A stretch of 64,000 nucleotides of DNA from positions 58,151 through 122,150 of the forward strand of contig JAWODI010000081.1 in NCBI GenBank assembly GCA_046483365.1. The letters run 5' to 3'. Shown one piece after another: positions 17,178-43,913 of this stretch. The stretch comes from Archaeoglobaceae archaeon (GTDB taxonomy: Archaea; Halobacteriota; Archaeoglobi; Archaeoglobales; Archaeoglobaceae). How positions within the stretch are numbered: the first letter of the stretch is position 1; each line of letters opens with the position of its first letter. Under the pieces are notes generated by a model that saw only the letters and a program-made list of their open reading frames with translations, was not told where the DNA came from and did not search any database. The translations under genes and the position numbers were made by a program.

Positions 17178-17235
17178 TTCTGACCATATTGTTAGAATAT
17201 AATTTGATTTTAATTTTCTGAGGTTATGGTCACAA
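17178..17235. promoter_or_regulatory. Motif C inverted pair: TTCTGACCAT (17178-17187) and ATGGTCACAA (17226-17235)
   Basis: 10-nt arms about 38 nt apart in the divergent intergenic region. The whole ~85-nt block is homologous to 42647-42720. Confidence 0.5.
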
Positions 17236-17328
17236 ACCTTATGTGCTAATTTGATAAACCTTGGCAGGGGACGGTGGGATGTCCAGGGTTATGAGAAGCG
17301 TTAATATTAAGGGAGAGGTAGCATTCTT

Positions 17329-20891: not shown

Positions 20892-20926
20892 CTAATCACC
20901 TGCTACCCCAAATCTCGGTATCATCT

Positions 20927-21031
20927 CTATTTTTTACGACAGAAAAAGGAGAACAACTTGTACAGTATAAATATCACAACAATTGGTATCAAAATCCTGA
21001 GTAAAATTACCTCATTAGGGCTCAAGCTCAT
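20927..21031 (-). CDS. 34-aa membrane peptide, duplicate of 16016..16144
   Basis: Hand translation MSLSPNEVILLRILIPIVVIFILYKLFSFFCRKK. Confidence 0.35.
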   Translation of the reverse strand: MSLSPNEVILLRILIPIVVIFILYKLFSFFCRKK

Positions 21032-21121
21032 TTTATCATCTTCTCAACTCTATCCTCATTCTTCCCTCTTTATTTTACTCGGTTTGATAGTCATCTTTAC
21101 TCCTTCGCATCAACAAATTGA

Positions 21122-22448: not shown

Positions 22449-23600
22449 CTATCCTCTCACATACTTCACCAGGCCAAGGGTGTATTTAGCTGTTTCAAGC
22501 AAGCAATTCTCAGTTATAGTCTTCAAATTGGAATTACTCCGCCACGTATCTGGGTTATCATAGATTATGTCGAAGACAGTATCTACATATTGATGTGAAT
22601 AGCTGCCCAAATTCTTGGTTGACTGCTCTGGATCACTGATTGAGTAGTAATACCAGTTGTCATCAACAACTGATTTAAAGTTATACCCAGAATCCCAATT
22701 ATCCGATATATAATCTTCATATGCAAAATGGATGTCTGGGTTCAAATATTGTCCCCATTCTGCCCCAGTGTGGAGTGGTTGGCCAACATCAGTCAAAAAG
22801 TGGCTAGAATAACCGAGATTTGTATACGCAGTGTTTCTGTTGCCTGAATCGTAGTTGTTTTTTGCTATATCCGCGTAGTATTCGCATTCACTCGGTGCTG
22901 AACCGGTTTCTACACCAGTTCCAGCCCAATCCGGATTATAATAGTGTGTCCAAGAATGCATCACATCCATTATAACATTCCATAGCCAATCAGGATAGCC
23001 TGAAGGCGGGGGAACCTGTGTCCAAAAGTCCGGATCATCTGCTGAATCTCTTGCAGTCTCATTATAAGGCTTCCCAACACCCCATTTGTTACACGAGATG
23101 TATGTAATGCTACGGTGCGTACTGGGCTCCCACAGTATGCCAACTCCTCCATTAGACTTCTCAAAGTATTCTGATACGGTATTTGCAACTTTTCCAAGTT
23201 TAGCGTTCTCTTTATCAGTTAGGTTAACGTTCTTACCTACGCTTTTTTTGAATTTAATCAGAGTTATCCTATCTTCTTTCTCGAACTTTATAGGGTATTT
23301 GTTCCACAGTTCTATCATAAAACTCTTCAATTCCTTTTTCTCATCTCCAGTCAGTTCAGCACTACTCTCGATGTATTTGAATGTGGCTCCTCTTCCGTCC
23401 TTAGCTGCAGCAAGTATAATCCAGAAAGGTGTTGCATTCTTTATGGATTGATCTATCTTTACCAGTTTAACGTTCTTTGGCAGTTTGTTCTCTTTTTCAA
23501 CTGGAATTGGTTTTGATTCAATGTCATTCGCAGACAATACAGGTGTTGTTGCGCTTACCATCATTACCAATACAATAAACAATGCTATAGCTCTTTTCAA
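22449..23600 (-). CDS. Secreted zinc-dependent phospholipase C / P1-nuclease superfamily-like protein
   Basis: GGAGGTGA Shine-Dalgarno then TTG start gives signal peptide MKRAIALFIVLVMMVSA. C-terminal half carries WEPSTH, HSWTHYYNPDW, GYSSHFLTDVGQPLHTG and HFAYEDYI, resembling the W1/H, HFYDPD, HY..D...P.H and H..fE Zn ligand motifs of Zn-PLC. Confidence 0.5.
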   Translation of the reverse strand: MKRAIALFIVLVMMVSATTPVLSANDIESKPIPVEKENKLPKNVKLVKIDQSIKNATPFWIILAAAKDGRGATFKYIESSAELTGDEKKELKSFMIELWNKYPIKFEKEDRITLIKFKKSVGKNVNLTDKENAKLGKVANTVSEYFEKSNGGVGILWEPSTHRSITYISCNKWGVGKPYNETARDSADDPDFWTQVPPPSGYPDWLWNVIMDVMHSWTHYYNPDWAGTGVETGSAPSECEYYADIAKNNYDSGNRNTAYTNLGYSSHFLTDVGQPLHTGAEWGQYLNPDIHFAYEDYISDNWDSGYNFKSVVDDNWYYYSISDPEQSTKNLGSYSHQYVDTVFDIIYDNPDTWRSNSNLKTITENCLLETAKYTLGLVKYVRG

Positions 23601-23654
23601 TTTTTCACCTCCATCCTTTAACCAGTATAACAATCAATAACCTATATACCCAAC

Positions 23655-23693
23655 GATTTCGTTCGCTAAAAGGCGAACGTTTTCGTAAAGTTT
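23655..23693 (-). promoter_or_regulatory. Motif B copy a
   Basis: Gene-sense: AAACTTTACGAAAACGTTCGCCTTTTAGCGAACGAAATCG, followed by GGTATATAGG and the leader ..TTAAAGGATGGAGGTGAAAAA-TTG. Confidence 0.6.
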
Positions 23694-23866
23694 AAAAATA
23701 AGCTGAGAACTCGCCAATATACGCATCAGTCACCAATAATCAACAGAAAAGGTTATCCTTCGATGTACGCATAACAAGCAGTATGGCAACCGAGCCAGCA
23801 GTAGCCATCTCCCCGTCAAGTATAACCACCAGGTTTAGCTCAGTTATGATAATGTTTCACGGATAA

Positions 23867-25018
23867 CTATCTCCCTCTGAGAAGATATACCACCAATAAG
23901 CCAGCAATTGCAGATATTACTTCAAATCCTCCAGTGGATTTTGCTTCCCCTACATGAAGTGAGCCTTCTTCAATGATATCAACTGCTTCTTGAGGGATGT
24001 TCAATTTCTTTATTTCCTTTTTCACTGCCTTTATCTGTGATTCTTCTGCTGTCTCCACACCAACTTCTAACTTGTTCTTCGTATCCTCTATATCAACTGA
24101 AGTAACCTTTAAATCATCATCCGAGAACAGCTTGATCAGCTTGCCTTTCCACTCCATCAACTGGCTGAAGGTATAATTACCCTTCAGAATCACCAATTCC
24201 ACATCCTCATAATGGGAGACGACCTCCTTAATCTTCTCGGCATCTTCCTGACTCTTTACATACACGTAAATTGTGGAGTTCTCCCGATCGACAAATAAAC
24301 CTCCAAAGGTGGGTACTTCATCCCCAATCTCGCCTTTTACCTCACGCAAACCCACCAAATCCCTAATCGCCCCTCTTGCTGCCCCTACTTCGAACACTCC
24401 AGGGGGTTTCCCTTCTAATGGCTGATATGGACCTACTTCAATTATATCGACTGCTTCTTGGGGTATGTTCAATTTCTTTATTTCCTTTTTCACTGCCTTT
24501 ATCTGTGATTCTTCTGCTGTCTCCACACCAACTACTAACTTATTTTTCCTCTCATCTATACCAACTAAAGTAACATTAAAATCTTCTCTATTATTCCCAA
24601 GAAAAGGTTTTGTGAGGTCACTTTTCCATTCCATCAACTGGCTGAAGGTATAATTCCCACGGTGAATCACCAATTCCACATCCTCATAGGAAGAAACAAC
24701 CTCCCTAATCTTCTCAGCATCTTCCTGACTCATTACATATACGTGAATCGTGGAGTTCCCATGGTCAACATACAAGCCTCCAAAGGTGGGTACTTCATCC
24801 CCAATCTCGCCTTTTACCTCACGTAAACCCACCAGATCCGTAATCTCCTTACTTGCTTCAGAAACTGATTTATTCTCTGCTTCCTGGCCATTCACACACA
24901 TAAAATTACTTATCAGCATTAATATAACAAGAAAAAGTAAAATTCCTTGCTTCAACCAACTCACCCCTACATTTTCTCTAAATCTTAGCTTAGTTCCGTT
25001 TATTACACTCTTTCTCAT
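23867..25018 (-). CDS. Surface-anchored protein made of two tandem alpha-lytic-protease-type pro-domains, no catalytic domain
   Basis: Two ~156-aa repeats (DLVGLREVKGEIGDEVPTFGGL(Y/F)VD..NSTI.VYV.SQEDAEKI.EVVS.YEDVELVI..GNYTFSQLMEWK...VGVETAEESQIKAVKKEIKKLNIPQEAVDIIE), homologous to the pro-region of the S1 protease at 37648..39036. C-terminus GGFEVISAIAGLLVVYLLRGR is PGF-CTERM-like. Confidence 0.6.
   Translation of the reverse strand: MRKSVINGTKLRFRENVGVSWLKQGILLFLVILMLISNFMCVNGQEAENKSVSEASKEITDLVGLREVKGEIGDEVPTFGGLYVDHGNSTIHVYVMSQEDAEKIREVVSSYEDVELVIHRGNYTFSQLMEWKSDLTKPFLGNNREDFNVTLVGIDERKNKLVVGVETAEESQIKAVKKEIKKLNIPQEAVDIIEVGPYQPLEGKPPGVFEVGAARGAIRDLVGLREVKGEIGDEVPTFGGLFVDRENSTIYVYVKSQEDAEKIKEVVSHYEDVELVILKGNYTFSQLMEWKGKLIKLFSDDDLKVTSVDIEDTKNKLEVGVETAEESQIKAVKKEIKKLNIPQEAVDIIEEGSLHVGEAKSTGGFEVISAIAGLLVVYLLRGR
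23950..24880 (-). repeat. Intragenic tandem duplication, 2 x ~468 bp
   Basis: For example 23970-24065 and 24438-24533 are nearly identical at DNA level (..CTGCTTCTTG.GG.ATGTTCAATTTCTTTATTTCCTTTTTCACTGCCTTTATCTGTGATTCTTCTGCTGTCTCCACACCAAC). Confidence 0.8.
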
Positions 25019-25086
25019 TTCGACCCCTCTTTACGTGATTCTGTGAAATTATATCTTTCTTTTCTTTTTGTAAGTTTTTATTAATA
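25019..25086 (-). promoter_or_regulatory. Cassette A copy 4
   Basis: Gene-sense: TTAATAAAAACTTACAAAAAGAAAAGAAAGATATAATTTCACAGAATCACGTAAAGAGGGGTCGAA-ATG. Confidence 0.6.
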
Positions 25087-25937: not shown

Positions 25938-26006
25938 TCCGACCCTCTTTCCCTGCTATTATACCTCAAACACTTATTAATTTTGTTTTGATAAGTTTTT
26001 ATTGAA
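25938..26006 (-). promoter_or_regulatory. Cassette A copy 5
   Basis: Gene-sense: TCAATAAAAACTTATCAAAACAAAATTAATAAG..GGTATAATAGCAGGGAAAGAGGGTCGGA-ATG. Confidence 0.5.
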
Positions 26007-29078: not shown

Positions 29079-29146
29079 ATCCGACCCTAAAACCCCTAAT
29101 TTATGCCTTTATATCTCACTTTTGTTTTCGTAAGTTTTTATTAAAT
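29079..29146 (-). promoter_or_regulatory. Cassette A copy 6
   Basis: Gene-sense: TTAATAAAAACTTACGAAAACAAAAGTGAGATATAAAGG..TTAGGGTCGGAT-ATG. The upstream box overlaps the stop codon of 29141..30574. Confidence 0.55.
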
Positions 29147-30648: not shown

Positions 30649-31938
30649 TTATATATATGTATCACAATCTCCTTTTTCTACTTGTAAATCACAATACTCA
30701 AACGCTATAGCGTTGTTAGCTTCAATCCTTGAGGTATGAGCAGTTTTTTGATACCAATCAGAGTCTATATTTCCGGTTGCTTTGTCCCAAAACGTATCGG
30801 CCCAGTCTGAACACCAAGTATCAAGATAATCGTTAATAGTTCCCTCATCACCAATCACGCACTTCACACCTTTGTTGACTAGTGTGGGGGCTAGATTATT
30901 ACCAGCGTTACATGAATTGATTACAAATAACCGAGACTGTAGATTATCTGAAGCGTCCCAACTACAATACCAGTTGTCCCCACTGAGGCCTATACAGTCA
31001 TCACTACCGTGTCCAGAAAAATAAACTGCTTCATATGTTGTTAACATATTATTGACTTGGTAATCATATAAGATTATGCCATAGTTCACAACTGCTGGAT
31101 CCCAACCGGGGTCTTTTTCCATTGATTCTTCTGCAGCAGCAATATCATTTGGCGATAGGTACCAATCGTCTCTTCCTACAGCTCCTTCGTCGTTATCTAA
31201 AGCTAAGATTGAAAAACCTCTTTCTTCAGTAGAGCTACTATCTGCTTTTCCATGCAATTTCCCGAAGTCGACTGTTGTCTTGTATAACTTCTTTATGGAC
31301 TCCATGAACCTCTCTTCACTAACCTTTTTTCCATTTGTAGCATCAATAACTGTGTTATTAGTGGAAATCCAGAAAACTCCTTTTTCAGGAACTATGATGA
31401 GTTTAGCGTGATCTGAATTCGTCATCTTTAAAGCCTCGTTCTCTGTTACATTTACATTGGGTTTGAAGTTTATTTCTTTTGTAGGCATTTTCCGATATGC
31501 TGCAATTTCACCTGTCATCTTATTTATGGAGATATAACCACTCTCCCCAAAAACACTGATACCATTTATTTGTCTTTCAAACTGAATATCAAAGTCATAT
31601 GGGTTTTCAACTGCACTAACCATCGTATAATCATCACCAAAGAACTTGGTTGCCAACCCAATAGCTTCTTCCTTCGACATCACTGGCTCACCATCAAGGT
31701 TCTCATTAACAGCAGTACGATTAAACCTAAGTACCGTGCTCCCCGTTTTTAAGTCAACCAAAGAATAACCATACTCATCTATTAAAACACTTACCTTATA
31801 TCCAGCATAGAACGTATTATTCTTTATCTCCTCTCCACCTGAAGAATTTTCCTTTTTATTCGTAGCCATTACTGTTGCAGTTACTACACTTGTCGATATC
31901 ACTAACACTAACAACAGCACTAAGACTCTCTTATTCAC
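30649..31938 (-). CDS. Secreted PepSY-like N-domain plus clan-CD-like (gingipain/caspase-fold) cysteine peptidase candidate
   Basis: AAGGAGGTGA Shine-Dalgarno then GTG start gives MNKRVLVLLLVLVISTSVV. N-half EEAIGLATKFFGDDY...ISINKMTGEIAAY. C-half has the His-Gly/Cys dyad pattern VYFSGHGSDD ... LFVINSCNAGN. Confidence 0.45.
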   Translation of the reverse strand: MNKRVLVLLLVLVISTSVVTATVMATNKKENSSGGEEIKNNTFYAGYKVSVLIDEYGYSLVDLKTGSTVLRFNRTAVNENLDGEPVMSKEEAIGLATKFFGDDYTMVSAVENPYDFDIQFERQINGISVFGESGYISINKMTGEIAAYRKMPTKEINFKPNVNVTENEALKMTNSDHAKLIIVPEKGVFWISTNNTVIDATNGKKVSEERFMESIKKLYKTTVDFGKLHGKADSSSTEERGFSILALDNDEGAVGRDDWYLSPNDIAAAEESMEKDPGWDPAVVNYGIILYDYQVNNMLTTYEAVYFSGHGSDDCIGLSGDNWYCSWDASDNLQSRLFVINSCNAGNNLAPTLVNKGVKCVIGDEGTINDYLDTWCSDWADTFWDKATGNIDSDWYQKTAHTSRIEANNAIAFEYCDLQVEKGDCDTYI

Positions 31939-31989
31939 ACAATTCACCTCCTTTAACCAGTATAACAATCAATAACCTATATAACCACC

Positions 31990-32028
31990 GATTTCGTTCG
32001 CTAAACGGCGAACGTTTCCGTAAAGTTT
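31990..32028 (-). promoter_or_regulatory. Motif B copy b
   Basis: Gene-sense: AAACTTTACGGAAACGTTCGCCGTTTAGCGAACGAAATCGGTGGTTATATAGG. Part of a ~150-bp block (31945-32091) nearly identical to 23607-23756. Confidence 0.6.
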
Positions 32029-32128
32029 AAAAATAAGCTGAGAACTCGCCAATATACGCATCAGTCATCAATATTCAACAGAAAAGGTTATGTAGTCAAT
32101 TTCAAGATGATTAGTTGGGGTCTCTGCA

Positions 32129-32623
32129 TTGAGCGATAACAAAATTCAGCTGGACAGGGAAATAATGAGTGCATTATCCTCTGAAAGCAGGATAGCCATT
32201 TTGAGAAGAATCCATGAAAGACAGAAGACTGTGACTGAGCTGGCAAATGAGCTGGATTTATCGAAGTCCACAGTACATAAGCACATCAATAAATTGAGTA
32301 ATGCCGGACTGATAGAAAGGATTGAGAATGACAGCAAATGGGTTTATTACCAACTAACCAAAAAAGGGAAACTGATCCAGGCCGGCAAAGCAGAAGCCAT
32401 TCTATTGCTATCCATGTCCTCTGTGGCCTTCATAGGAGGTGTGATCGAGCTCTACCTCTATTTTGTTGGTATCAAATACCAAGCTCCAGGCACATCTCAT
32501 GATCCAGTCTACCTGATCTTGGGGCAGGTCTTGCTAATTGTGGGAATTGTTGCAGGATATTTTGGCTATAAGATCCTCAAAGAGAAGCGGGGATTGGCCA
32601 AGTTGGAAGGAAAAGTCTCTTGA
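32129..32623 (+). CDS. Membrane-anchored ArsR-type winged-helix regulator (HTH + TM hairpin)
   Basis: SRIAILRRIHERQKTVTELANELDLSKSTVHKHINKLSNAGLIERIENDSKWVYYQLTKKGK, then two TM helices separated by a 13-aa loop (KYQAPGTSHDPVY). Confidence 0.65.
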   Translation: MSDNKIQLDREIMSALSSESRIAILRRIHERQKTVTELANELDLSKSTVHKHINKLSNAGLIERIENDSKWVYYQLTKKGKLIQAGKAEAILLLSMSSVAFIGGVIELYLYFVGIKYQAPGTSHDPVYLILGQVLLIVGIVAGYFGYKILKEKRGLAKLEGKVS

Positions 32624-32652
32624 GATTCTTTCATTTTCCAAGACCCTTTTTT

Positions 32653-32694
32653 AAGCTTTACGATGTTGTTCGCCAAAAAGCGAACGAATTCGCG
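32653..32694 (+). promoter_or_regulatory. Motif B copy d
   Basis: AAGCTTTACGATGTTGTTCGCCAAAAAGCGAACGAATTCGCG, flanked by AGACCC...GGGTCT and followed by TTAAATATTTT. Confidence 0.6.
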
Positions 32695-32765
32695 GGTCTT
32701 AAATATTTTCAATTCTAATTTTACTTTGGCATGCCGTCTGGGGCCCCTCTATAGGAGGTGGAATA

Positions 32766-33524
32766 ATGAAGAAAAAGTATGTGTTATTATCTATTCTTAT
32801 GGTAGCTCTGGTGGCAATGGTGATGGTCGCTGCTACCGGGATTGATGGCCCCAGGGTGGACAGGGAGAAGGCAAAAGACATGGTCAGAGAGTATATAAAT
32901 GATTCTGAGGCTGAAGTCGTTTATAAAAAGAGTGAGAGCCTTAATCATGGCGACTACCTTGTGATGGAAGTAGAAAACGACTGTTTCTACGTTAATTCCG
33001 ACACAGGAATTATTGAGAGAGCTACATTCAATGATGCCAGACAGAACTCCTCAAAAGTCTTGTTGAGCGAGAGGGAAGCGATGAAGCGAGCAGAAAAGTT
33101 CGTCAAGCAGAAATATAGTATTGGGGATATGGAGCTGGTGAGAAGCGATCTGCTCGATCACGGAAATGTGAAGGAGTATCTTTTTATCTGGGCAGAGAAA
33201 ATCTCCGGGGTGGAAACGAATAGAATGGCAGTCTCCGTAAATCCAAATACAGGGCAGATAATCTCCTTCATGGGAATTTTCAGGGAGGCTAAGGTCCAGC
33301 TGCAGCCGGATATCTCCAGAGAAAAAGCAATAGAAATAGCAAATAACCAGTTCAATGTCCAGAACGCTCAAACAAAGGCCAGATTAAGCATTGAATACCC
33401 AGAAAAAGACGTGCAGAAACTCGTGTGGGTGATAGAAACTGAAAGCGAGGAAAGCCTGAACGGTGGTATGGCCATTATCGATGCCTTATCGGGTGAGGTT
33501 TTAATGGCAAGTCCTTATAAATGA
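32766..33524 (+). CDS. Secreted protein with about three PepSY-like repeats
   Basis: AGGAGGTGG Shine-Dalgarno and TM/signal anchor. Repeats begin REKAKDMVREYI, EREAMKRAEKFV and SREKAIEIANNQF, each ending in a ..D..TG.I.. strand (SDTGIIE, PNTGQII, ALSGEVL). Confidence 0.5.
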   Translation: MKKKYVLLSILMVALVAMVMVAATGIDGPRVDREKAKDMVREYINDSEAEVVYKKSESLNHGDYLVMEVENDCFYVNSDTGIIERATFNDARQNSSKVLLSEREAMKRAEKFVKQKYSIGDMELVRSDLLDHGNVKEYLFIWAEKISGVETNRMAVSVNPNTGQIISFMGIFREAKVQLQPDISREKAIEIANNQFNVQNAQTKARLSIEYPEKDVQKLVWVIETESEESLNGGMAIIDALSGEVLMASPYK

Positions 33525-33542
33525 GGACTCACCCCTTTTTTA
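33510..33542 (+). terminator. Hairpin plus T-run
   Basis: AGTCCT-TATAAATG-AGGACT (33510-33529, spans the stop codon) followed by CACCCCTTTTTTT. Duplicated at 39093-39127. Confidence 0.5.
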
Positions 33543-33552
33543 AGGTGGTAAG

Positions 33553-34173
33553 TTGAAGAAAAAGCTTTACATAGTTTTGATTGCTCTGGCGGTTCTGATT
33601 GGGGTGGATATAGCTCTGATCCTCTATACGCCGACTCCCACTGGACCACCACCTACAGAACCCGTGCACCCTCTGGATGAAGTTGATGACTTGAGAATCG
33701 GTGATGTTGTAGTTACAGATAAAAATGGAGAATGGGAACTCTCTTCAGTTCAGTATCCCGGAGGCATATTAAGGGGAGAAAACTATACTGGGGGTGATTA
33801 CGACCCTGATGTTACTATAACCAGCAACAACATTTCGTTCAACATAGGGATTTTGGTAAGCCATCTTAATGAAAGTGGGAAGAAAGAGAGGGAGCTAAAA
33901 ATAATTGAATGGACTTATTCCAATCATGATCAGGCCAGCGTTAAGAAGAAGCAAAAGAGAATTCCAATTAATTTTGACACTCTGGGACTTAAAACCTTCA
34001 GATATAGCACAGACATTCCAGAATCAGACAATCGCACCATCACAAAGAACATCGAGCTGAGAGTGCCAGTGCTGGCAGAAAAACCCAATGGTGAGCTAAT
34101 CTATAGCTATGACTGCACTTTTGTGTTGCGGATTAATGTCCAGAAAAGTGACTGTGAAACTTCCCGAATTTAA
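33553..34173 (+). CDS. ~210-aa N-terminally anchored extracytoplasmic protein, paralog of 39139..39777
   Basis: AAGGTGGT Shine-Dalgarno + TTG start. LYIVLIALAVLIGVDIALILYTPTPTGPP...ELSSVQYPGG.L.GE...LKI.EWTYS... is shared with 39139..39777. Confidence 0.55.
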   Translation: MKKKLYIVLIALAVLIGVDIALILYTPTPTGPPPTEPVHPLDEVDDLRIGDVVVTDKNGEWELSSVQYPGGILRGENYTGGDYDPDVTITSNNISFNIGILVSHLNESGKKERELKIIEWTYSNHDQASVKKKQKRIPINFDTLGLKTFRYSTDIPESDNRTITKNIELRVPVLAEKPNGELIYSYDCTFVLRINVQKSDCETSRI

Positions 34174-34280
34174 ATCATATTTCAGACATTCTGGGGCCAT
34201 CAGATGGTAAAATGGATGGAAAGATAGTTTTAACAGTCAGTAATGCACAACAGAGTGTATGGTACTTCAAAGTTTATGGC

Positions 34281-34350
34281 GAATTGCTGTCCCAGAATGG
34301 GCCCTTATAAAAGGAAGAAATAGCTGAAATGACTGAACTCAATCCCAAAA
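34281..34350 (+). pseudogene. ~70-bp fragment of a dual-wHTH regulator gene (like 43161..43913)
   Basis: GAATTGCTGTCCCAGAATGGGCCCTTATAAAAGGAAGAAATAGCTGAAATGACTGAACTCAATCCCAAAA versus 43727-43797 GAATTACTGTCCCAGAATGGGTCCTTATCAAAAGAAGAAATAGCTGAACTGACAGGAATAAATCCGAAAA. Contains an in-frame TAA. Confidence 0.6.
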
Positions 34351-34358
34351 CCTCTTCT

Positions 34359-34397
34359 AAGCTTTACGATATTGTTCGGCAAAAGCGAACGTTTTCA
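34359..34397 (+). promoter_or_regulatory. Motif B copy e
   Basis: AAGCTTTACGATATTGTTCGGCAAAAGCGAACGTTTTCA, directly abutting the Top6A-like fragment. Confidence 0.55.
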
Positions 34398-34399
34398 TG

Positions 34400-34920
34400 C
34401 CATCAAACAGAGCAAAGACACCGGGGATAGGGGGTCTCCGGCTCCGTGCTCTATGCTCAATTAACTACTGGAAATCCGATAGTAATCACTTCCAAGACCA
34501 CCCCAGAAGAGAAAACCCAGAAAGTGGAACTATATGCCAGCACCAGGACTACGAGTCCCTACGTCCACCTCAAGGACAGCCCGCCAGAAGCACCCGAAGG
34601 CTGCTCAGAAGGCTAAATAAAGAGGTGGATTTACCGGTGATTATATTTACGGCGACCCCTCCGCCACCTTCATAGGTGTAATGCCTTCAGATATTGTCCA
34701 CTATGATCTACCATCTGACAAGCTCACCGATAAGGATATACGGGCTTTGAATTCCATTTTGACTGATCCCCGATTCGATAGCGATTTCTGGAAAAAAGAG
34801 GTGGATATGCAGCTCAAATTGAACAAAAAATCAGAGCAGCAGGCTCTGGCCAAGTATGGGTTGGATTTTGTTACTGATACTTATCTGCCGGATAAGTTGA
34901 GTGAGTTGGGGATTGTCTAA
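34400..34920 (+). pseudogene. Decayed 3' fragment (Toprim to C-terminus) of a topoisomerase VI subunit A / Spo11-like gene
   Basis: [25 protein letters not shown] matches the Toprim motif G-x-PD-x-ATR-x-FL..L....LPV. A shifted frame gives [22 protein letters not shown]. The final ORF (34681-34920) [56 protein letters not shown] matches the Top6A C-terminal pattern. At least two frame changes are needed and the expected segment after DPYG is missing. Confidence 0.55.
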
Positions 34921-34932
34921 TCTGATCATTCT

Positions 34933-35487
34933 TTATTGAGGTTCTATATCTATCCATGAATTGCGTATTTCACCATAACCTGTTGACATCTCGGGGGTTT
35001 CCACATGGACATGCTTCATGACCACATAGTATTTTCCAGGGCCTACCAGATCTCCGTTACTATTTCGTTGATCCCACACATAGGAATACGTTATCTCCTC
35101 CCCAGGCTCCAATTCAATTTCCTTATTTCCCGGGGGGAAATGGCGCACTACCTCTCCAAATGATTTCTCTATTTCCAGTTTTGGGGGAAATGGACTAAAA
35201 TTGAGTTTTTGTATCCCCTGGTTTCTGAAAGTGAAATTGATGTGAACTTCTTTGCCGCTTGGAACATAGTATTTCGAACCATCTATTTCCAGCGGAGGTG
35301 ATTCAGGTGAGAGAACGTGTTCGGGAGTTTGCTCTACTTGCATAGAAGTCTCTTCTGTAACCTGAGGAAACTGTTCTTGGGTAGTATTTGTGACAGATTC
35401 TTTTGGTAGCGAATTATTATAATCTCCATTTTGCGCGCAACCAATCGCAAGTAAGGCTAGTAATATAACCAATACTATTATTTTCAA
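34933..35487 (-). CDS. Lipoprotein with BsuPI-like (proteinase-inhibitor fold) domain
   Basis: Lipobox AIGCAQN. LEPGEEITYSYVWDQRNSNGDLVGPGKYYVVMK matches the remembered BsuPI pattern (..pGE...y...W.......G..v.pG.Y). Confidence 0.4.
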   Translation of the reverse strand: MKIIVLVILLALLAIGCAQNGDYNNSLPKESVTNTTQEQFPQVTEETSMQVEQTPEHVLSPESPPLEIDGSKYYVPSGKEVHINFTFRNQGIQKLNFSPFPPKLEIEKSFGEVVRHFPPGNKEIELEPGEEITYSYVWDQRNSNGDLVGPGKYYVVMKHVHVETPEMSTGYGEIRNSWIDIEPQ

Positions 35488-35544
35488 TTTAATCCCATCT
35501 ATTCCTTATCAGATTTTTATTTAAAGCTTCTTACAAGTTATTTA

Positions 35545-36507
35545 TCAGTCTACCCACGTATAATATGCGTAAGCATCTCCTTCTATTGAATGAGACTCAT
35601 ATATAGGGCACGAACCCTGAGGCGCTTCCCACCATTCCGTATCCACTTGCTCATCCCACCATACTGAAAAATCTTGTACATGGAGTTTTGAGTTCTCGTG
35701 TTTTGCAATTCCTTCATCATCAGTATAAACTCCTGTATCTGACCATATTTCGTTCGCTTGATCTACATTATTTTCTTGGTGCCCAAGGTGGCCACTTCTT
35801 ACCCATTGACCGTCAATCCAAATGTCATATACGTATCCCCAGGCATCCACTTCATTTGAGACGTAAATTACGTAGCTTGTTTTAGAGGACGAATCTGTAG
35901 TTCCGTGGAATTTCCACTGGCCTTCATCATTATCATACGTAAAGTAGTTTATATCTGTGGGATTTCCGTCAACTAACCATCTGACGACGCCTGCTTCAGT
36001 CCAACAAGGTTCTCCAGCTACCTCTTTACCAACGTGTGTGGTGATCACATGCTGTGTCGTCTCATCTGGATCTAATAGCATCTCACTTGGTCTCATGTAA
36101 TTACCTATACCCCGATATACTTCGTTTTCAACTTCCATTACTTGGTTTGCTTGATCTGGAGACGGGACATGCGGAGGAGTTAGAGGCTTTAATTGTTTTA
36201 TTTCCTCATCACTTGGACAGTTACCTGCACATTTTCTCCAAGTTGCTCCTGTTTTTGGATCCCACCCAAATCCTTGATTATTTAGTTCTTTGGTAATCTC
36301 CTCTTTATTCTTTCCCTCACCCTTCATCCTCTTAATCAGTTTTTCTGCTGGGTTTTCAAAATTATTAAGCTCTTCTATATCTTTTTTATCAGGTAATGAT
36401 TTATTGTCTTTAGGTTGTCCACTATTCTCTAAGTTTGCCTTTGCTACTACACTTCCCACCATCACTAATACTAAAACCAGTGTTAAGATTAAGAACTTCT
36501 TTTTCAT
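35545..36507 (-). CDS. Secreted 320-aa protein, unknown function
   Basis: Start MKKKFLILTLVLVLVMVGSVVA (signal peptide). Lys/Glu-rich pro-like region, then a Trp/Tyr/Asp-rich C-domain (WTEAGVVRW, YFTYDNDEGQWKF, YDIWIDGQWV, ANEIWS). Driven by Motif B copy c. Confidence 0.5.
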   Translation of the reverse strand: MKKKFLILTLVLVLVMVGSVVAKANLENSGQPKDNKSLPDKKDIEELNNFENPAEKLIKRMKGEGKNKEEITKELNNQGFGWDPKTGATWRKCAGNCPSDEEIKQLKPLTPPHVPSPDQANQVMEVENEVYRGIGNYMRPSEMLLDPDETTQHVITTHVGKEVAGEPCWTEAGVVRWLVDGNPTDINYFTYDNDEGQWKFHGTTDSSSKTSYVIYVSNEVDAWGYVYDIWIDGQWVRSGHLGHQENNVDQANEIWSDTGVYTDDEGIAKHENSKLHVQDFSVWWDEQVDTEWWEAPQGSCPIYESHSIEGDAYAYYTWVD

Positions 36508-36557
36508 TATCTCACATCCTTTCATCTTAAGTCAGTATCCTAACCTATATAACCACC

Positions 36558-36593
36558 GATTTCGTTTGCTAAACGGCGAACGTTTCCGTAAAA
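36558..36593 (-). promoter_or_regulatory. Motif B copy c
   Basis: Gene-sense: TTTTACGGAAACGTTCGCCGTTTAGCAAACGAAATCGGTGGTTATATAGG. Confidence 0.55.
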
Positions 36594-36865
36594 CTTATAA
36601 CTGTAGCTCGAGAACTTCTTAAACCAATTAAATGATAAACTAGTTTATCAAAATAGAAAGAGTTATGTAAGCTGTTTTAACTAGATCAGAGAGAGGAAAT
36701 CAAAATCCATCACTGATGTCAAATAACACGCTCCATTGTTGTTTAATCCATTTATTTGATCTTGGTTTGTACTGCTAATTGTTGAAGTTGTGGCAGGACA
36801 AGGAGTGGCGGGTTTGGCCAGACTCATAAGAACTCTCAATCTTAAGATCTTTTCAAACCTCTTTT

Positions 36866-36915
36866 AAGCTTTACGGTGTTGTTCGCCAAAATCGAACGTT
36901 TTCATAAAGCTTAAA
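36866..36915 (+). promoter_or_regulatory. Motif B copy f
   Basis: AAGCTTTACGGTGTTGTTCGCCAAAATCGAACGTTTTCATAAAGCTT, with outer arms AAGCTTTA..TAAAGCTT as well; about 115 nt upstream of 37027. Confidence 0.55.
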
Positions 36916-37026
36916 AACTAAAAAATCAAACTGTAAAACAGAATGAAAGTAACCTGATCTTTAGTTTTCTTATTCATAATCCCGATTATATCCTAGAAAT
37001 TTTTCATATATTTCCGTTAATTTTTT

Positions 37027-37569
37027 ATGTTATTTGTTTATCCTTATACTGTGGGGACGGACATTGATTTATCACTGGACAATCGGATGTTTGAAGCTCT
37101 ATCTTCAGGTTTGAGGGTAGAGATATTGAAAAGACTTAAATCAAGGCAGATGACTGCAACAGAGATTTCGAAAGAGCTGGATGTTTCCAAATCTACTGCC
37201 ATCGAGCATTTAAGAAAGCTGGTGGAGGCTGAGCTGGTTATAAGGAGAGATGATGGGAGGAAGTGGATTTACTACAGTCTCTCTGATAGGGGAAAGACGA
37301 TTTTACATAAAAAAGAGTTAAGAGTGAAGATCTTATTTTCTTTTGCAACCATCTTAATGCTTTCTGGTGTGGTACAAATATATGCTTTCGTACAAAGGCT
37401 GTTCGAAAGATTATCGAAGGCTCCCATATTAGATGCTAAACACCCGCCAGAAGTTCCTTACTTATATATAGCTACCCACGATTTCCGGTTCTTGACTGGA
37501 GTAGCTCTTGTAATAGGAAGTATAACGGTATTCTACATAGCTATAAGAAAGTACAGATCCTATTTTTAA
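37027..37569 (+). CDS. Membrane-anchored ArsR-type winged-helix regulator (HTH + TM hairpin)
   Basis: LRVEILKRLKSRQMTATEISKELDVSKSTAIEHLRKLVEAELVIRRDDGRKWIYYSLSDRGK, then two TM helices. The start is uncertain (internal ATG at MFEALSS possible). Confidence 0.6.
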   Translation: MLFVYPYTVGTDIDLSLDNRMFEALSSGLRVEILKRLKSRQMTATEISKELDVSKSTAIEHLRKLVEAELVIRRDDGRKWIYYSLSDRGKTILHKKELRVKILFSFATILMLSGVVQIYAFVQRLFERLSKAPILDAKHPPEVPYLYIATHDFRFLTGVALVIGSITVFYIAIRKYRSYF

Positions 37570-37570
37570 T

Positions 37571-37595
37571 TGTTCGGGAAATCCGAACGATCTCG
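37571..37595 (+). promoter_or_regulatory. Motif B copy g (core palindrome only)
   Basis: TGTTCGGGAAATCCGAACGATCTCG, immediately after the regulator stop and 53 nt before the protease start. Confidence 0.5.
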
Positions 37596-37647
37596 TAATT
37601 ATTTTAACTTAAAAAGATAACCCAGTATCAAATCAGAGGAGGTGTTG

Positions 37648-39036
37648 ATTGTGTGGAGCAAGAGAGTGCTGTATCTGCTGGCCGTATGCATTTTTTTCTC
37701 TCTTACGTTTGTAGTGGGTTCGGCCTTCGGAGATGGCGAAAAAATTCTGATGGGTCCAGAAGAACTGGAGATTAACTGGACAGGCTACGATGGTAGAGTT
37801 ATAGACTACTATGTGCATGAGAATGGAGAGTGGATCGAAAAACAAAGACCTGACTTCTGGTATAAGCATTTAAAGTTAGAGAACCTAAAAGTCCATCACC
37901 CAAATTCGAATAACACCTACGGTAATGTTGCAGGTTCGGCAGTATCTTTGAAGGAAAGTGCGTCAATGAAGGTACCAAGTTATGGTGGATCGTTCATGGA
38001 CCCTGAAAGTGGTATTCTCTTCGTCTATGTTACCAATGAGGAAGATGGAAAAAAGATTCTGGAGATGGTTAACGGGACAAAAGTCGTCTTGCTTGAAGGA
38101 AAATATAGTTACGAACAGCTGGTAGACTGGGAAGATAAACTGCTTCATAAAATAGAGGCAGAAGAGAATAGTTCAATTGCATCACGATGGACCATGATGG
38201 CTCCAAGTGATAAACTGAATAAGATACGCATTGGTCTAAGCTCGGTCGATGATAAAGCTATTAATGAAATCGAGAGCATGCTCAAAGAATTAAATATCCC
38301 ACCTGATGCAGTAACTGTTGAAAAATTCGGCAAGATACAGTTAGATATAAGTCGTTCCGATCGCATAAGACCATTAATTGGAGGAATACAAATTGACAAC
38401 CCCAATTATGGTGGATCTGGAGAGGGCGATTGTACACTTGGTTTCATTGCAACAAGAAATGGTGTCTCCGGCTTCGTAACAGCAGGTCATTGTGGTAATG
38501 AAAATCATCCTATATACCAACCACTTTATACTGGCGATGATTATACTAATTTAGTGGGAGTTGTGACTGATGATCAGCAAGGTAGTAGATTCAGCGATTC
38601 AATGTGGGTCGAGATATATGATAGTTCGTATGATTTCGAAATATACAACCAGTATGACCCCTCAAACCATTATCCTGTTTTCAGTGAAATGCAATCGCAG
38701 AGTACAGGCATGTATGTGTGTCAAGGCGGATTCGAAACCGGTGAAGCCTGCGGTGAGATTGCTGAGGTTAACGTGGATGTAACCCACCCAGAGTACGGCA
38801 CACTATACGACCAGGTACTGGCAACCTATAATCGCGCTGGTGGCGATAGCGGAGCACCTATCTACCATGAACCCCTTGATAGTTGGGTCAGAGATTACTG
38901 TGTAGATACTTATGGTGTAACCTGCCAGGACATCTACGGTATTCACTTTGGATATAACGGTACTGTCAACCGTGCCATATATAGTCCAATAAGCGGAATA
39001 GAGACTGATCTTGGAGAACTTGACACAGATGGATGA
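37648..39036 (+). CDS. Secreted chymotrypsin-fold serine protease, S1E-type (alpha-lytic/streptogrisin-like) with N-terminal pro-domain
   Basis: GAGGAGGTG Shine-Dalgarno + GTG start, signal peptide. The pro-region (YGGSFMDPESGILFVYVTNEEDGKKILEMV...GKYSYEQLVDWEDKL...INEIESMLKELNIPPDAVTVEKFG) is homologous to the 23867..25018 repeats. Catalytic motifs CTLGF..VTAGHCG and GGDSGAPIY. Confidence 0.75.
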   Translation: MVWSKRVLYLLAVCIFFSLTFVVGSAFGDGEKILMGPEELEINWTGYDGRVIDYYVHENGEWIEKQRPDFWYKHLKLENLKVHHPNSNNTYGNVAGSAVSLKESASMKVPSYGGSFMDPESGILFVYVTNEEDGKKILEMVNGTKVVLLEGKYSYEQLVDWEDKLLHKIEAEENSSIASRWTMMAPSDKLNKIRIGLSSVDDKAINEIESMLKELNIPPDAVTVEKFGKIQLDISRSDRIRPLIGGIQIDNPNYGGSGEGDCTLGFIATRNGVSGFVTAGHCGNENHPIYQPLYTGDDYTNLVGVVTDDQQGSRFSDSMWVEIYDSSYDFEIYNQYDPSNHYPVFSEMQSQSTGMYVCQGGFETGEACGEIAEVNVDVTHPEYGTLYDQVLATYNRAGGDSGAPIYHEPLDSWVRDYCVDTYGVTCQDIYGIHFGYNGTVNRAIYSPISGIETDLGELDTDG

Positions 39037-39092
39037 CTAGAACATTGGGAAAAATCAAGTCTGATTATTTTTAGCCCGAGGTTTTAATGGCA

Positions 39093-39127
39093 AGTCCTTA
39101 TAAATAAGGACTCACCCCTCTTTTTTT
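39093..39127 (+). terminator. Hairpin plus T-run, duplicate of 33510-33542, preceded by a PepSY gene 3' remnant
   Basis: 39075-39104 GAGGTTTTAATGGCAAGTCCTTATAAATAA reproduces the last codons (EVLMASPYK*) of 32766..33524. AGTCCT..AGGACT stem then TTTTTTT. Confidence 0.55.
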
Positions 39128-39138
39128 AAGGTGGTAAG

Positions 39139-39777
39139 TTGAACAGAAAGCTCTACATAATTTTAGGTGCTCTGGCAATACTAATTGGGGTGGACATAGC
39201 TCTAATCCTCTATACGCCGACTCCCACTGGACCACCATCAACCATACCACAGCTCCACCCTCTGGAAGAGGTCAATGGGATAGGGGTTGGTGATATCGTA
39301 GTTGTGAATAGGAATGGTGTCTGGGAGCTCTCCTCAGTTCAGTACCCCGGAGGCGTATTGAAGGGAGAGGAGCTCAATGAAAGCTACAACTACCACCCCA
39401 ACATCACTATCCATAGAGATAGCAATACGATCTCCTTTGATATGGGAATTCTGGTGGAACACCTTAACCAGAGTGCAAAGAAGAACAGGGAACTGAAGAT
39501 AGTTGAGTGGACTTATTCAGGACGTGTTGTACTTGATGAAAGTGAGGTAAGAAAGAGCGCTCAGCTCAACCTCAGCCCCGGCCTCAACAACATCAGGTAC
39601 ACCACCACCATACCTGAATCGGATAACTGCACCACTAACAAGGTCATCGAGCTGAAAATCCAGGTGCTGGCAGAAAAAGAAAAAGAAGGAGAGGATGGTG
39701 AGATAGACTATGTCTACGATCAGACAAACGTAGGAACAATTGAGGGCCATAAATGCAATTTAACTAAGAAGAACTAA
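39139..39777 (+). CDS. ~210-aa N-terminally anchored extracytoplasmic protein, paralog of 33553..34173
   Basis: Same Shine-Dalgarno/TTG start and the same N-terminal 35 aa as 33553..34173. Confidence 0.55.
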   Translation: MNRKLYIILGALAILIGVDIALILYTPTPTGPPSTIPQLHPLEEVNGIGVGDIVVVNRNGVWELSSVQYPGGVLKGEELNESYNYHPNITIHRDSNTISFDMGILVEHLNQSAKKNRELKIVEWTYSGRVVLDESEVRKSAQLNLSPGLNNIRYTTTIPESDNCTTNKVIELKIQVLAEKEKEGEDGEIDYVYDQTNVGTIEGHKCNLTKKN

Positions 39778-41507: not shown

Positions 41508-41593
41508 AGTCCTTCCCCCATTCTCATTTCAACCCTCATTAGTTCAGCCAAATTATATGTTAGTTATTCTTTTAGTAAGTTTTTATTAAACTA
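41508..41593 (-). promoter_or_regulatory. Cassette A copy 7
   Basis: Gene-sense: TTAATAAAAACTTACTAAAAGAATAACTAACATATAATTTGGCTGAACTAATGAGGGTTGAAATGAGAATGGGGGAAGGACT-ATG. Confidence 0.5.
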
Positions 41594-42592: not shown

Positions 42593-42649
42593 GTATTTCA
42601 CCTACAAATTTAACTTTAATTTCCATTAGAACAAATTCTCTATTTAGCA

Positions 42650-42707
42650 ATTCTGACCATTGCGTTAGAATATAAATTCATTTTAATTTTCAAGGCCCAT
42701 GGTCAGA
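42650..42707. promoter_or_regulatory. Motif C perfect inverted pair: TTCTGACCAT (42650-42659) and ATGGTCAGAA (42698-42707)
   Basis: Perfect 10-nt arms 38 nt apart, with GTTAGAATATAA between them as in the 17.2-kb copy. Confidence 0.55.
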
Positions 42708-42815
42708 AAACTTATTTATCATGAACCAAATAACCGATTAATAAGTTATTTAGAGAAGTATTAATGATTTTAGGTCTAAAAATCAGAAAAATATAATTTT
42801 TTATGTTCTAGTACC

Positions 42816-42858: not shown

Positions 42859-43227
42859 ATGAAAATAGGTTGGCTTTGTTTGGTTGGATTGGCTGTTCTG
42901 TTGATGTCGGTGCCAGTCGGTGCAATAAATGTAGAGCCAGAAACAATCTATGACACCATAACGGAAGGAGAAACGGACTGGTTTAGTAGAGATATCTCAT
43001 CATCGACATTTGATGTTCATCTTGATTGGGGCGATACATCTGATAGCTTGACTCTGACAATTTATTCACCAGACGGTAGCTATCAAACATTTAGAGACAA
43101 AGATGATGGAAGGGTTGATGGACGGATAAGTTTAACAATATACGATGCGACGTACGGGTCATGGGACTTCAGGGTTCACGGCGAAGAAGTGAATGGAGTA
43201 GAGTACTACTCTTTTACTGTAGTTTAA
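42859..43227 (+). CDS. Secreted PPC-like (pre-peptidase C-terminal type) beta-sandwich protein
   Basis: Signal peptide. EGETDWFSRDI...FDVHLDWGDTSDSLTLTIYSPDGS resembles the PPC pattern (..w..f.v......l.v.L......DlDL.ly.p.G). Confidence 0.45.
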   Translation: MKIGWLCLVGLAVLLMSVPVGAINVEPETIYDTITEGETDWFSRDISSSTFDVHLDWGDTSDSLTLTIYSPDGSYQTFRDKDDGRVDGRISLTIYDATYGSWDFRVHGEEVNGVEYYSFTVV

Positions 43228-43913
43228 CTATCTTATTCCTTTTTTTTATTTCTCAAGCTTCAGCATTCGGAGTTAAACCCGCCAATGTTACCGATGAAGA
43301 ACTCGAAAAGATAAAACAGAACGACATCGATGACGAAAGGAAAATCTCTTTCTGGGATCTTCCTTTATGGATAAAAGCTCACCACATTTATCTTATCACG
43401 CTTTCGGCTCTCGCAGCTCTCGGACTCTGGAAATACCTTCCCATCCTACTTGGAAGAATCAAGTCTGTTCTAAAGAGTACGAAGAGACAACGAATATTGG
43501 ATTACTTGGAGTGGAACTTTGGGGTTAGCATAAGAGAACTCGAGGAAAATCTCAACATTAACAGGAGCACCCTCCGCTACCATTTAGCTTTGCTGGAAAG
43601 ATGGGGTAAGGTTATCTCAGTTAGTTGCGGTAATGAAAGGCTATTTTTCTCTAAAAACCAGCTTACAGACGGTGAACTGGGTCTGGTGACCTTTTTAAGG
43701 TCAGAAAATAAGAGACGTATACTTGAATTACTGTCCCAGAATGGGTCCTTATCAAAAGAAGAAATAGCTGAACTGACAGGAATAAATCCGAAAAACTTAT
43801 ACTATCACCTTAACCACCTCAAAAGTTCAGGTATGTTAGAGAAAAATGGGGAAGAGTTTCGCATCGATCCTGAACAACGGGGAAGATTCTTGAGTTTATT
43901 GAGGTACGCATAA
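43161..43913 (+). CDS. Single-pass transmembrane regulator with two winged-helix domains, paralog of 17329..18030
   Basis: SAFGVKPANVTDEELEKIKQNDIDDERKISFWDLPLWIK ectodomain, TM helix, then RILDYLEWNFGVSIRELEENLNINRSTLRYHLALLE and RRILELLSQNGSLSKEEIAELTGINPKNLYYHLNHL. The only in-frame start overlaps 42859..43227 by 67 nt. Confidence 0.6.
   Translation: MGLQGSRRRSEWSRVLLFYCSLTILFLFFISQASAFGVKPANVTDEELEKIKQNDIDDERKISFWDLPLWIKAHHIYLITLSALAALGLWKYLPILLGRIKSVLKSTKRQRILDYLEWNFGVSIRELEENLNINRSTLRYHLALLERWGKVISVSCGNERLFFSKNQLTDGELGLVTFLRSENKRRILELLSQNGSLSKEEIAELTGINPKNLYYHLNHLKSSGMLEKNGEEFRIDPEQRGRFLSLLRYA

Follow-up and report, generated by a model that had tools for sequence, protein, structure and literature searches.

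We analyzed an inverted repeat, GTTCG-N7/8-CGAAC (motif B), in a 64,000-nucleotide (nt) stretch of contig JAWODI010000081.1 from an Archaeoglobaceae archaeon, referred to below as the window. This repeat is likely to be the operator of two neighboring membrane-anchored ArsR-type winged helix-turn-helix (wHTH) regulators, encoded at 32129-32623 (regulator 1) and 37027-37569 (regulator 2). The sites keep a fixed geometry relative to TATA-like boxes, and they adjoin members of the same regulator family in other archaea. The recognition helix of the adjacent regulator co-varies with the presence of a site and with its spacer length, and the genes flanked by the sites code almost exclusively for proteins with a hydrophobic N terminus.

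Occurrence of the palindrome

The repeat is real. Exact matches to GTTCG-N6-9-CGAAC occur six times in the window (23661-23678, 31996-32013, 32668-32685, 34374-34390, 36881-36897, and 37572-37588), whereas dinucleotide-preserving shuffles of the window contained 0.07 matches on average and never reached six. A seventh copy, with its core at 36564-36581, carries one mismatch (GTTTG...CGAAC). The original prediction had listed seven intergenic copies of this inverted repeat and had called their number far beyond chance. The count stands, with six copies exact and one differing at a single base, and all seven fall into the approximately 16% of the window that lies outside long open reading frames (ORFs). 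The sole additional one-mismatch match, at 38624, is located inside a gene and fits the chance expectation of 2.6. The excess over chance is equally clear, but the copies are not fully independent, as they share duplications. Copies 1 and 2 (23661 and 31996) lie inside a 143-nt duplication (23614-23756 and 31949-32091; 96% identity), copy 3 (36564) has 60 nt in common with both, and 51 nt are common to copies 4, 5, and 6 (32668, 34374, and 36881). Copy 7 (37572) has nothing but the core in common with the other copies, and the 17- to 18-nt core is the only part common to all. Two spacer classes can be distinguished: N8 (23661, 31996, 32668, and 36564) and N7 (34374, 36881, and 37572).

Promoter architecture around the palindrome

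With the copies oriented alike, a common plan is visible: the core is followed by G-(A/T)3-TCG or G-TTTT-CAT and then by an A/T-rich TATA-like box, which in the window lies 10 to 13 nt away from the core. Downstream of the TATA-like box follow a Shine-Dalgarno sequence, GGAGGTG, and a start codon, at a spacing that fits an archaeal promoter. The TATA-like box, G(G)TTATATAGG or GGGTATATAGG, is present after all three minus-strand copies, as had been noted before. The earlier description of a CTTTACG box 5 nt from the core in six copies requires a change of interpretation. CTTTACG-N5-GTTYG matches five copies exactly (0.02 expected), and the box reads TTTTACG in the sixth (copy 3), but it is not a separate upstream box. 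On the opposite strand, the AAGCTTTACG box consists of CGTAAAG and then (C/T)TTAAAAA, and it is best read as part of an oppositely pointing promoter, namely its transcription factor B recognition element (BRE) and the first part of its TATA box, CGTAAAG+TTTAAAAA. This reading would often place the palindrome between two divergent core promoters, as the center of a compact and frequently bidirectional promoter module. At copy 2, one promoter points toward the regulator gene 32129-32623 and the other toward the secreted-protein gene 30649-31968; at copy 6, both boxes make up a 50-nt dyad.

Pooling 96 flanks of 48 distinct sites yielded the consensus CGAAC-R-WTTT-CG-nAAG-n-TTTAWAA, in which the TATA-like box extends from +13 to +19 and about 5 bp separate the end of the core from the BRE-like CGnAAG. 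This fixed +13 offset bears out the proposed position just upstream of a TATA box. The geometry also fits the placement typical of an activator, which sits beside the BRE and TATA box, upstream and without overlap, here at 5 bp from CGnAAG and 10 to 13 bp from the TATA-like box.

Predicted membrane-anchored ArsR-type regulators

Regulator 1 (32129-32623, plus strand) is a protein of 164 amino acids (aa) without cysteine, in which an ArsR-type wHTH domain with the recognition helix SKSTVHKHI precedes two C-terminal hydrophobic helices. Its paralogue, regulator 2 (37027-37569, plus strand; 180 aa; 32% identical), has the recognition helix SKSTAIEHL and again two C-terminal hydrophobic helices; its true start codon is perhaps located at 37051. 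Both proteins match the Pfam families HTH_20 and HTH_5 above their cut-offs and the NCBIfam ArsR/SmtB model NF033788 with 58.7 and 58.8 bits (cut-off of 55), and the nearest sequences in the PDB are those of the ArsR-type proteins PH1932, Phr, and HlyU. The hydrophobic segments, which start at residues 88 and 123 in regulator 1 and at residues 98 and 153 in regulator 2, recur throughout the family. As modeled by AlphaFold, regulator 1 comprises the wHTH domain and two long helices, 78-116 and 126-163 (mean pLDDT of 68.5), and basic residues are present at the N- and C-terminal sides of both helices. This arrangement would suit a helix hairpin whose two ends are cytoplasmic and whose short loop faces outward.

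The metal or metalloid site that characterizes ArsR/SmtB sensors, rich in cysteine or histidine and located at alpha3N or alpha5, was not found: regulator 1 is free of cysteine, and the wing is followed by two long hydrophobic helices, not by a soluble alpha5 interface. Both regulators do combine a wHTH domain and at least one predicted transmembrane region in a single polypeptide, and by these features the family fits the broad class of transmembrane transcription regulators. Protein searches returned few homologues of regulator 1 and, for regulator 2, only the window's own protein. The closest relatives of the window proteins are encoded in metagenome-assembled genomes (MAGs) named Halobacteriota archaeon or Archaeoglobaceae archaeon. 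An archaeal origin is also marked by a PGF-CTERM protein and by the style of the promoters.

Conservation of the site beside homologous regulators

The association between palindrome and regulator is not confined to the window, as the same palindrome adjoins homologous regulators in other genomes and in metagenomes. Two loci with orthologues of 90% identity (L001 and L213) contain three sites each, in the same three places as the window, and 15 kb of housekeeping DNA surrounding the L213 cassette contain none. In L006 and L007 (54 to 56% identity), a site is found 15 nt past the regulator stop codon and before divergent genes. In L009, L012, and L013 (39 to 45% identity), it lies between the regulator and a divergent gene for a signal-peptide protein of 155 to 158 aa.

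A metagenome scan by protein alignment (6 sequences) yielded 79 loci at 33 to 55% identity. They contain 39 exact GTTCG-N6-9-CGAAC sites, compared to approximately one expected from base composition in 320 kb. Site density was 0.95 per kb near the regulator (no more than 150 nt upstream or by the 3' end) and 0.034 per kb elsewhere, corresponding to a 28-fold difference. In 8 loci, the distance from the site to the regulator ATG is exactly 43 nt. In 22 loci, the site is found around the 3' end of the regulator gene, ranging from 42 nt within the ORF to 150 nt past the stop codon, and in 9 it precedes other cassette genes. In the "43-nt" group, 21 nt separate the TATA box from the ATG. Such a gap suggests leaderless-mRNA geometry and, if the mRNA is leaderless, the palindrome would extend from approximately -61 to -44. 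Among homologues down to 33 to 45% identity, the flanking DNA cannot be aligned, yet all 10 bases of the core match exactly and keep their register relative to the TATA-like box.

In many metagenome loci (L141, L151, L153, L165, L166, L168-L170, L175, L179, L185, L187, L194, and L200), the putative operator is contained in the last 10 or so codons of the regulator gene. There, the bases that code for the basic C-terminal tail of the regulator would double as a promoter-proximal site for the gene that follows. In relatives from soda lakes and sediment, L009 (10001-11734), L012 (10001-11004), and L013 (2805-3808), the membrane-anchored regulator is encoded beside an HSP20 small heat-shock gene, and its DNA-binding domain matches the NCBIfam model of the heat-shock regulator Phr with E values down to 9e-11; no palindrome was seen before hsp20 in these three loci. 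A scan of genome contigs with GTTCGCNNNNNNGCGAACGANNTCG was of no use, giving at least 120 single matches, almost all in high-G+C bacteria, in which any pattern was swamped by chance. Viral contigs yielded ten single chance matches on G+C-rich contigs, with no promoter architecture.

Co-variation of the site with the recognition helix

Recognition helices were aligned to SKSTVHKHI of regulator 1 and counted over distinct proteins. On the available DNA, an exact site accompanied 34 of the 46 proteins with a helix of the form xKS[TS][VI][HRY], compared to 4 of 33 with other helices (Fisher's exact test, P = 5e-8, kinship ignored). The spacer followed the helix as well, with N7 found solely beside ...ENL helices (5/5) and N8 solely beside ...EHL or ...KHL helices (35/35). 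In relatives whose helix is SKPTLLEHL or SKPAVLKHV, the corresponding upstream position is occupied by GTTAG...CGAAT or GTTAG...CTAAC (L188, L190, L193, L196-L198, L201, L202, and L204), which points to co-evolution of half-site and helix in distant regulators.

Co-variation of site presence and spacer with the helix is expected if each regulator binds the palindrome beside its own gene, whereas an unrelated trans-acting factor would hardly explain it. It also strengthens the earlier suggestion that the dyad symmetry of the site suits a dimeric wHTH protein. The N8 sites (23661, 31996, 32668, and 36564) probably constitute the regulon of regulator 1. That of regulator 2 would probably comprise the three N7 sites, one of them (34374) a relic and the others at 36881 and 37572.

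Nature of the flanking genes

From 9.5 to 44 kb, the window forms an island of signal-peptide and membrane-protein genes between housekeeping genes. The originally proposed location of the sites upstream of secreted-protein genes was borne out. We considered distinct nonregulator genes that start 15 to 250 nt from a site on its promoter side. A hydrophobic N-terminal segment (signal or anchor) is encoded by 31 of these 33 genes and by 142 of the 443 other ORFs of the same loci (32%; P = 9e-13). No single partner gene is conserved across all loci; the partners are diverse small secreted or membrane proteins, and the largest partner families are present in only 10 to 11 of approximately 90 loci.

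Several points weigh against the operator assignment or parts of it. The helix and site statistics do not account for phylogeny, and 12 of the 46 proteins with a matching helix, often on short contigs, have no exact site; one of the relatives, L008, also has none. Since the window copies are in part recent duplicates, their local count overstates their independence. The helix of regulator 2 (SKSTAIEHL) is divergent, and no homologues of this protein were found; the N7 sites were therefore assigned to it by adjacency only. As the MsvR consensus is likewise matched by the core, a different ArsR-type protein encoded in this genome could be the binder. All BRE and TATA assignments were read from sequence alone, and membrane anchoring is predicted from hydropathy and a model of medium confidence (mean pLDDT of 68.5).

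Alternative explanations

MsvR is an ArsR-type wHTH protein that binds TTCG-N7-9-CGAA in its own promoter, as determined by electrophoretic mobility shift assay for proteins of Methanosarcina and Methanothermobacter (PMC3729527). The palindromes could be MsvR boxes, through which a cytoplasmic MsvR-type regulator encoded elsewhere, with a wHTH and a redox-sensing V4R domain, represses the secretome genes in response to redox, the local regulators being mere targets. The likeness is considerable. The G-TTCG-N7/8-CGAA-C core satisfies the experimentally defined consensus (PMC3729527): the inverted repeat is the same, with TTCG and CGAA half-sites 7 to 9 nt apart, and A/T-rich flanks matter in both. 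The known box is bound by an ArsR-type wHTH dimer and occurs in the regulator's own promoter and in a divergent one. Here, too, the repeat is found in the regulator's own promoter region, at 31996 and 36881 upstream of the window regulators as well as in L009, L012, and 8 metagenome loci. An HdrA-like gene in the window suggests a methanogen or a relative of anaerobic methanotrophic archaea, and the closest named MAG relatives belong to the GTDB phylum Halobacteriota. The NCBIfam MsvR model matches the DNA-binding domains of the regulators weakly, with E values of 1e-7 to 3e-10 (1e-7 to 4e-9 for the window regulators), which indicates related DNA-binding domains and therefore makes cross-recognition plausible.

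We nevertheless consider MsvR boxes an improbable explanation, since the site tracks the membrane-anchored family over dozens of loci at fixed positions, and both the occurrence of the site and the length of its spacer follow the recognition helix of this family. Neither the window nor any of the loci examined codes for a V4R protein. The regulators have two membrane helices where MsvR has a V4R domain with conserved cysteines, and they show no Pfam match to V4R; against the NCBIfam MsvR equivalog, the window regulators reach 31.5 and 36.7 bits (cut-off of 220), with the N-terminal domain only. A search with the DNA-binding domain alone returned short ArsR-type proteins and fragments, and V4R was found in none of the 63 close relatives. 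A specific kinship with MsvR is unsupported beyond the weak NCBIfam match. Furthermore, published MsvR boxes overlap the BRE/TATA region or the transcription start site (TSS), whereas the site described here is fixed upstream of the BRE. Its half-site is one base longer on each side (GTTCG/CGAAC), and its putative targets are secreted proteins, in contrast to the oxidative-stress enzymes controlled by MsvR.

According to a second explanation, no dedicated factor exists: the palindrome is functionless, and the copies resemble each other by common descent of promoter modules that were duplicated together with paralogous secreted-protein cassettes. The shared sequence described above (143 nt in copies 1 and 2, 60 nt with copy 3, and 51 nt in copies 4 to 6) is what this explanation would predict, the cassette genes are paralogous (33536-34083 is similar to 39122-39678), and copy 5 resembles a rearrangement relic. 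Descent does not account, however, for a core that is exact and in TATA register beside homologues of 33 to 45% identity whose flanks cannot be aligned, for copy 7 with the core alone in common with the others, or for 39 sites where approximately one is expected by chance. This makes a functionless palindrome very unlikely.

Least credible of all is an RNA hairpin (a terminator, or a stability or ribosome-access element, 3'-terminal in the regulator mRNA or 5'-terminal in the target mRNA) or a repeat resembling a miniature inverted-repeat transposable element (MITE). Copies 4 and 6 do fold well (z = -3.6 and -5.0), a terminator scan flags copies 5 and 6 (a stem followed by TTTTCAT), and many relatives have the site in or just past the regulator ORF. 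The folds are inconsistent, however (z = -0.3 for copy 5, -1.4 for copy 7, and -1.7 for copy 2), terminator-like structures number 6 versus 4.5 in shuffles, and no palindrome copy of the window matches Rfam. The palindrome would remain untranscribed where it lies upstream of both TATA boxes, as it does in the "43-nt" group and between divergent promoters. The scan, which covered bacterial sigma-70 promoters and intrinsic terminators, gave the same counts as shuffles; this model is unsuited to an archaeon. Hallmarks of a MITE are missing, as the copies have neither terminal repeats nor target duplications, lie between genes in register with promoters, and give only single chance matches in viral contigs; the scatter through coding DNA that had been named in advance as evidence against a promoter element was not seen in the window, in the 20.5-kb orthologous locus, or in the 79 loci.

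Relation to membrane-bound regulators

A precedent for an operator of membrane-anchored regulators is provided by ArnR of Sulfolobus acidocaldarius, a membrane-bound helix-turn-helix (HTH) activator with two C-terminal transmembrane helices that acts through inverted repeats at -43 to -84 (PMC6396743). ArnR and ArnR1 share with the regulators described here an N-terminal HTH domain, two C-terminal transmembrane helices, and cell-surface or secreted proteins as targets. The inverted repeats also lie upstream of the BRE and TATA box in both cases, at -43 to -84 for ArnR and at a predicted approximately -61 to -44 here. Differences are evident nonetheless. In ArnR, HAMP and sensor domains separate the HTH domain from the transmembrane helices, and two TCGAC-N5-GTCGA boxes are needed, whereas the proteins described here are approximately 160 to 190 aa long, have no intervening domain, and are associated with a single box with another half-site. 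ArnR belongs to the Thermoproteota, in contrast to relatives named Halobacteriota here, and the window regulators score 26.4 bits against the NCBIfam ArnR model (cut-off of 400). A census found transmembrane transcription regulators in 367 of 404 archaeal genomes and names only ArnR-type examples as experimentally studied in archaea (PMC10269533).

Among bacterial systems, ToxR, CadC, and TcpP as well as the SdpR/SdpI pair follow a one-component logic like that predicted here, in which a DNA-binding domain that is tethered or captured at the membrane controls neighboring genes for envelope or secreted products. The fold of ToxR and CadC is of the OmpR type, and they act on bacterial transcription machinery, not on archaeal TBP and TFB. 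SdpR is a soluble ArsR-family autorepressor that is sequestered at the membrane by SdpI. The NCBIfam subfamily model for SdpR is the second-best match to the regulators (E = 2.5e-11 and 3.8e-14), below its cut-off. A limited literature search found no description of the regulator family or its operator, which is no proof of absence, and searches for a GTTCG/CGAAC motif in archaea and for HVO_A0261 returned nothing relevant. As a transcription-factor operator, the predicted element is of a known kind; its putative regulators, small ArsR-type proteins with a membrane anchor, form an undescribed family.

Proposed mechanism

From these features, we infer physical binding by a dimer, its membrane topology, a signal, and the sign of regulation. 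The N-terminal wHTH domains of a regulator dimer would be cytoplasmic, with the C-terminal two-helix hairpin in the membrane keeping the dimer together. The dimer would bind GTTCG-N7/8-CGAAC together with its A/T-rich flanks (CGAAC-R-WTTT). Since the core ends approximately 5 bp from CGnAAG and 10 to 13 bp from the TATA-like box, often on both sides, the dimer would abut TFB and TBP of one or two promoters. The promoters under control would include the regulator's own, in many family members and for both window regulators, and those of neighboring genes, almost all of which encode signal-peptide or membrane-anchored proteins.

As to the sign of regulation, we lean toward signal-dependent activation, in which TFB and TBP would be recruited or stabilized from the site just upstream of the BRE; repression by occlusion of the BRE is the alternative and has the lesser, still appreciable, chance of being correct. 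Activation is favored because known archaeal activators bind just upstream of the BRE, as at the ArnR boxes, and known repressors, including MsvR, overlap the BRE/TATA region or the TSS. Ptr2 and EarA likewise bind just upstream of the BRE. In view of the short outer loop and the exported products of the neighboring genes, one may speculate that the signal is related to the cell envelope.

A more far-reaching version of this mechanism is offered tentatively. The regulators could form a minimal family of membrane-tethered activators that is widespread in archaea. One dimer between back-to-back promoters could contact TFB and TBP on both sides and so switch on divergent secretome genes, with N7 and N8 spacing separating the regulons of paralogous regulators. 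If this is true, transcription of the secretome from the membrane could be coupled to co-translational export (transertion), and the regulator could sense exported partner proteins through its short outer loop.

Next to nothing is known of how archaea control their secreted proteins, and the combination of regulator and site is found again in dozens of other, uncultured archaea. It would offer a compact, testable system: a regulator of approximately 165 aa, a 17- to 18-bp operator with co-variation at the level of bases and spacing, and obvious targets. Questions that it opens are how a membrane-tethered factor contacts TBP, TFB, and RNA polymerase, how one dimer may serve two promoters, and how wHTH paralogues avoid cross-talk. 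Use of the MsvR-type TTCG...CGAA half-site by ArsR-type proteins with other sensor modules would also matter for motif-based prediction of MsvR regulons.

Individual copies and their putative targets

Copy 1 (N8, exact; 23661-23678, GTTCGCTAAAAGGCGAAC) is found upstream of the gene 22449-23633 (minus strand), a predicted target that codes for a signal-peptide protein. Its TATA-like box, GTATATAG (23642-23649, minus strand), lies 11 nt from the core, with GGAGGTG and a start codon at the expected distance. On the other side, an orphan BRE/TATA-like element, CGTAAAG+TTTAAAAATA (23684-23700, plus strand), duplicates the regulator-side promoter of copy 2 and has no regulator gene after it. Besides the putative operator, the 143-nt duplication takes in the two core promoters and some of the 5' leader of the regulator gene. 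No regulator gene follows at 23757, which leaves copy 1 with an orphan rightward promoter that points at the 3' end of the gene 23867-25018. This gene codes for a PGF-CTERM surface protein and contains internal tandem repeats of approximately 470 nt (23918-24118/24386-24586 and 24146-24380/24623-24857; 84 to 86% identity).

Copy 2 (N8; 31996-32013, GTTCGCTAAACGGCGAAC) lies between the divergent genes 30649-31968 (minus strand) and 32129-32623 (plus strand), and it is kept in L001 (at 4070) and L213 (at 9868). The leftward gene, a predicted target, codes for a signal-peptide protein without a Pfam family; its putative TATA-like box, TTATATAG (31977-31984, minus strand), is 11 nt from the core. 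Toward regulator 1, a BRE-like CGTAAAG with a TATA-like TTTAAAAATA (32019-32035, plus strand) fits the pooled flank consensus; its other strand is the CTTTACG box. Copy 3 (N8, one mismatch; 36564-36581, GTTTGCTAAACGGCGAAC) is upstream of the gene 35545-36525 (minus strand), another predicted target that codes for a signal-peptide protein, with a TATA-like box TTATATAG (36545-36552, minus strand) again 11 nt from the core.

Copy 4 (N8; 32668-32685, GTTCGCCAAAAAGCGAAC) begins 45 nt past the stop codon of regulator 1, a position kept in L001, L006, L007, and L213. The TATA-like box TTAAATAT (32699-32706, plus strand), 13 nt from the core, would serve the gene 32766-33524. This gene codes for a secreted protein with a PepSY domain and is the first of a predicted target operon (32766-34173, plus strand), the second being the gene for a 206-aa N-terminally anchored protein (33553-34173); the same gene order is found in L001-L004 and L213.

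Copy 6 (N7; 36881-36897, GTTCGCCAAAATCGAAC) is the center of the 50-nt dyad TTTTAAGCTTTACG...CATAAAGCTTAAAA upstream of regulator 2. A BRE/TATA-like CATAAAG+CTTAAAAAC (36903-36918, plus strand) points toward the regulator gene 37027-37569, and its mirror-image partner is the box CGTAAAGCTTAAAAGA (36860-36875, minus strand). Approximately 35 nt downstream of this leftward CGTAAAGCTTAAAAGA box starts a 49-aa ORF (MSLAKPATPCPATT...; 36680-36826, minus strand), which might be a small divergent target or nothing. Copy 7 (N7; 37572-37588, GTTCGGGAAATCCGAAC) lies 3 nt past the stop codon of regulator 2 and upstream of the gene 37642-39036, for which the TATA-like box TTATTTTAA (37599-37607, plus strand) is located 10 nt from the core. 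The predicted target operon here (37642-39777, plus strand) consists of this gene, which codes for a 464-aa signal-peptide protein, and of the gene for a 212-aa paralogue of 33553-34173 at 39139-39777.

Copy 5 (N7, exact; 34374-34390, GTTCGGCAAAAGCGAAC) is probably the relic of a rearrangement, as it is followed by neither a TATA-like box nor a convincing gene and abuts a pseudogene fragment (34281-34353). The fragment is 85% identical to 43725-43797, which is the HTH part of the gene 43161-43913, and contains an in-frame stop codon. It ends exactly where the sequence common to copies 5 and 6 begins. The whole stretch 34174-34932 is devoid of a convincing gene and looks like a recombination scar.

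Other features of the window

A second intergenic module, TTTTGTTTTnGTAAGTTTTTATTAA, is present in seven or eight copies (10029-10060, 12621-12652, 17131-17162, 25054-25085, 25975-26006, 29114-29145, and 41559-41590, with a weaker one at 59206), mostly before minus-strand genes for secreted or membrane proteins. It is presumably the element called motif A in the original prediction and could represent a further kind of promoter or operator in the island. The genes 17329-18030 and 43161-43913 are paralogues. Each product combines two wHTH domains with a signal or transmembrane segment at its N terminus and one more hydrophobic segment, and the two represent another kind of membrane-associated DNA-binding protein in the island. 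Both genes have a common upstream repeat (17168-17242 and 42641-42715). The segments 15707-16147 and 20613-21034 are paralogous blocks that contain genes for small proteins with three transmembrane segments and their upstream regions (75 to 92% identical). A tRNA gene at 53134-53207 is the sole Rfam match in the window.

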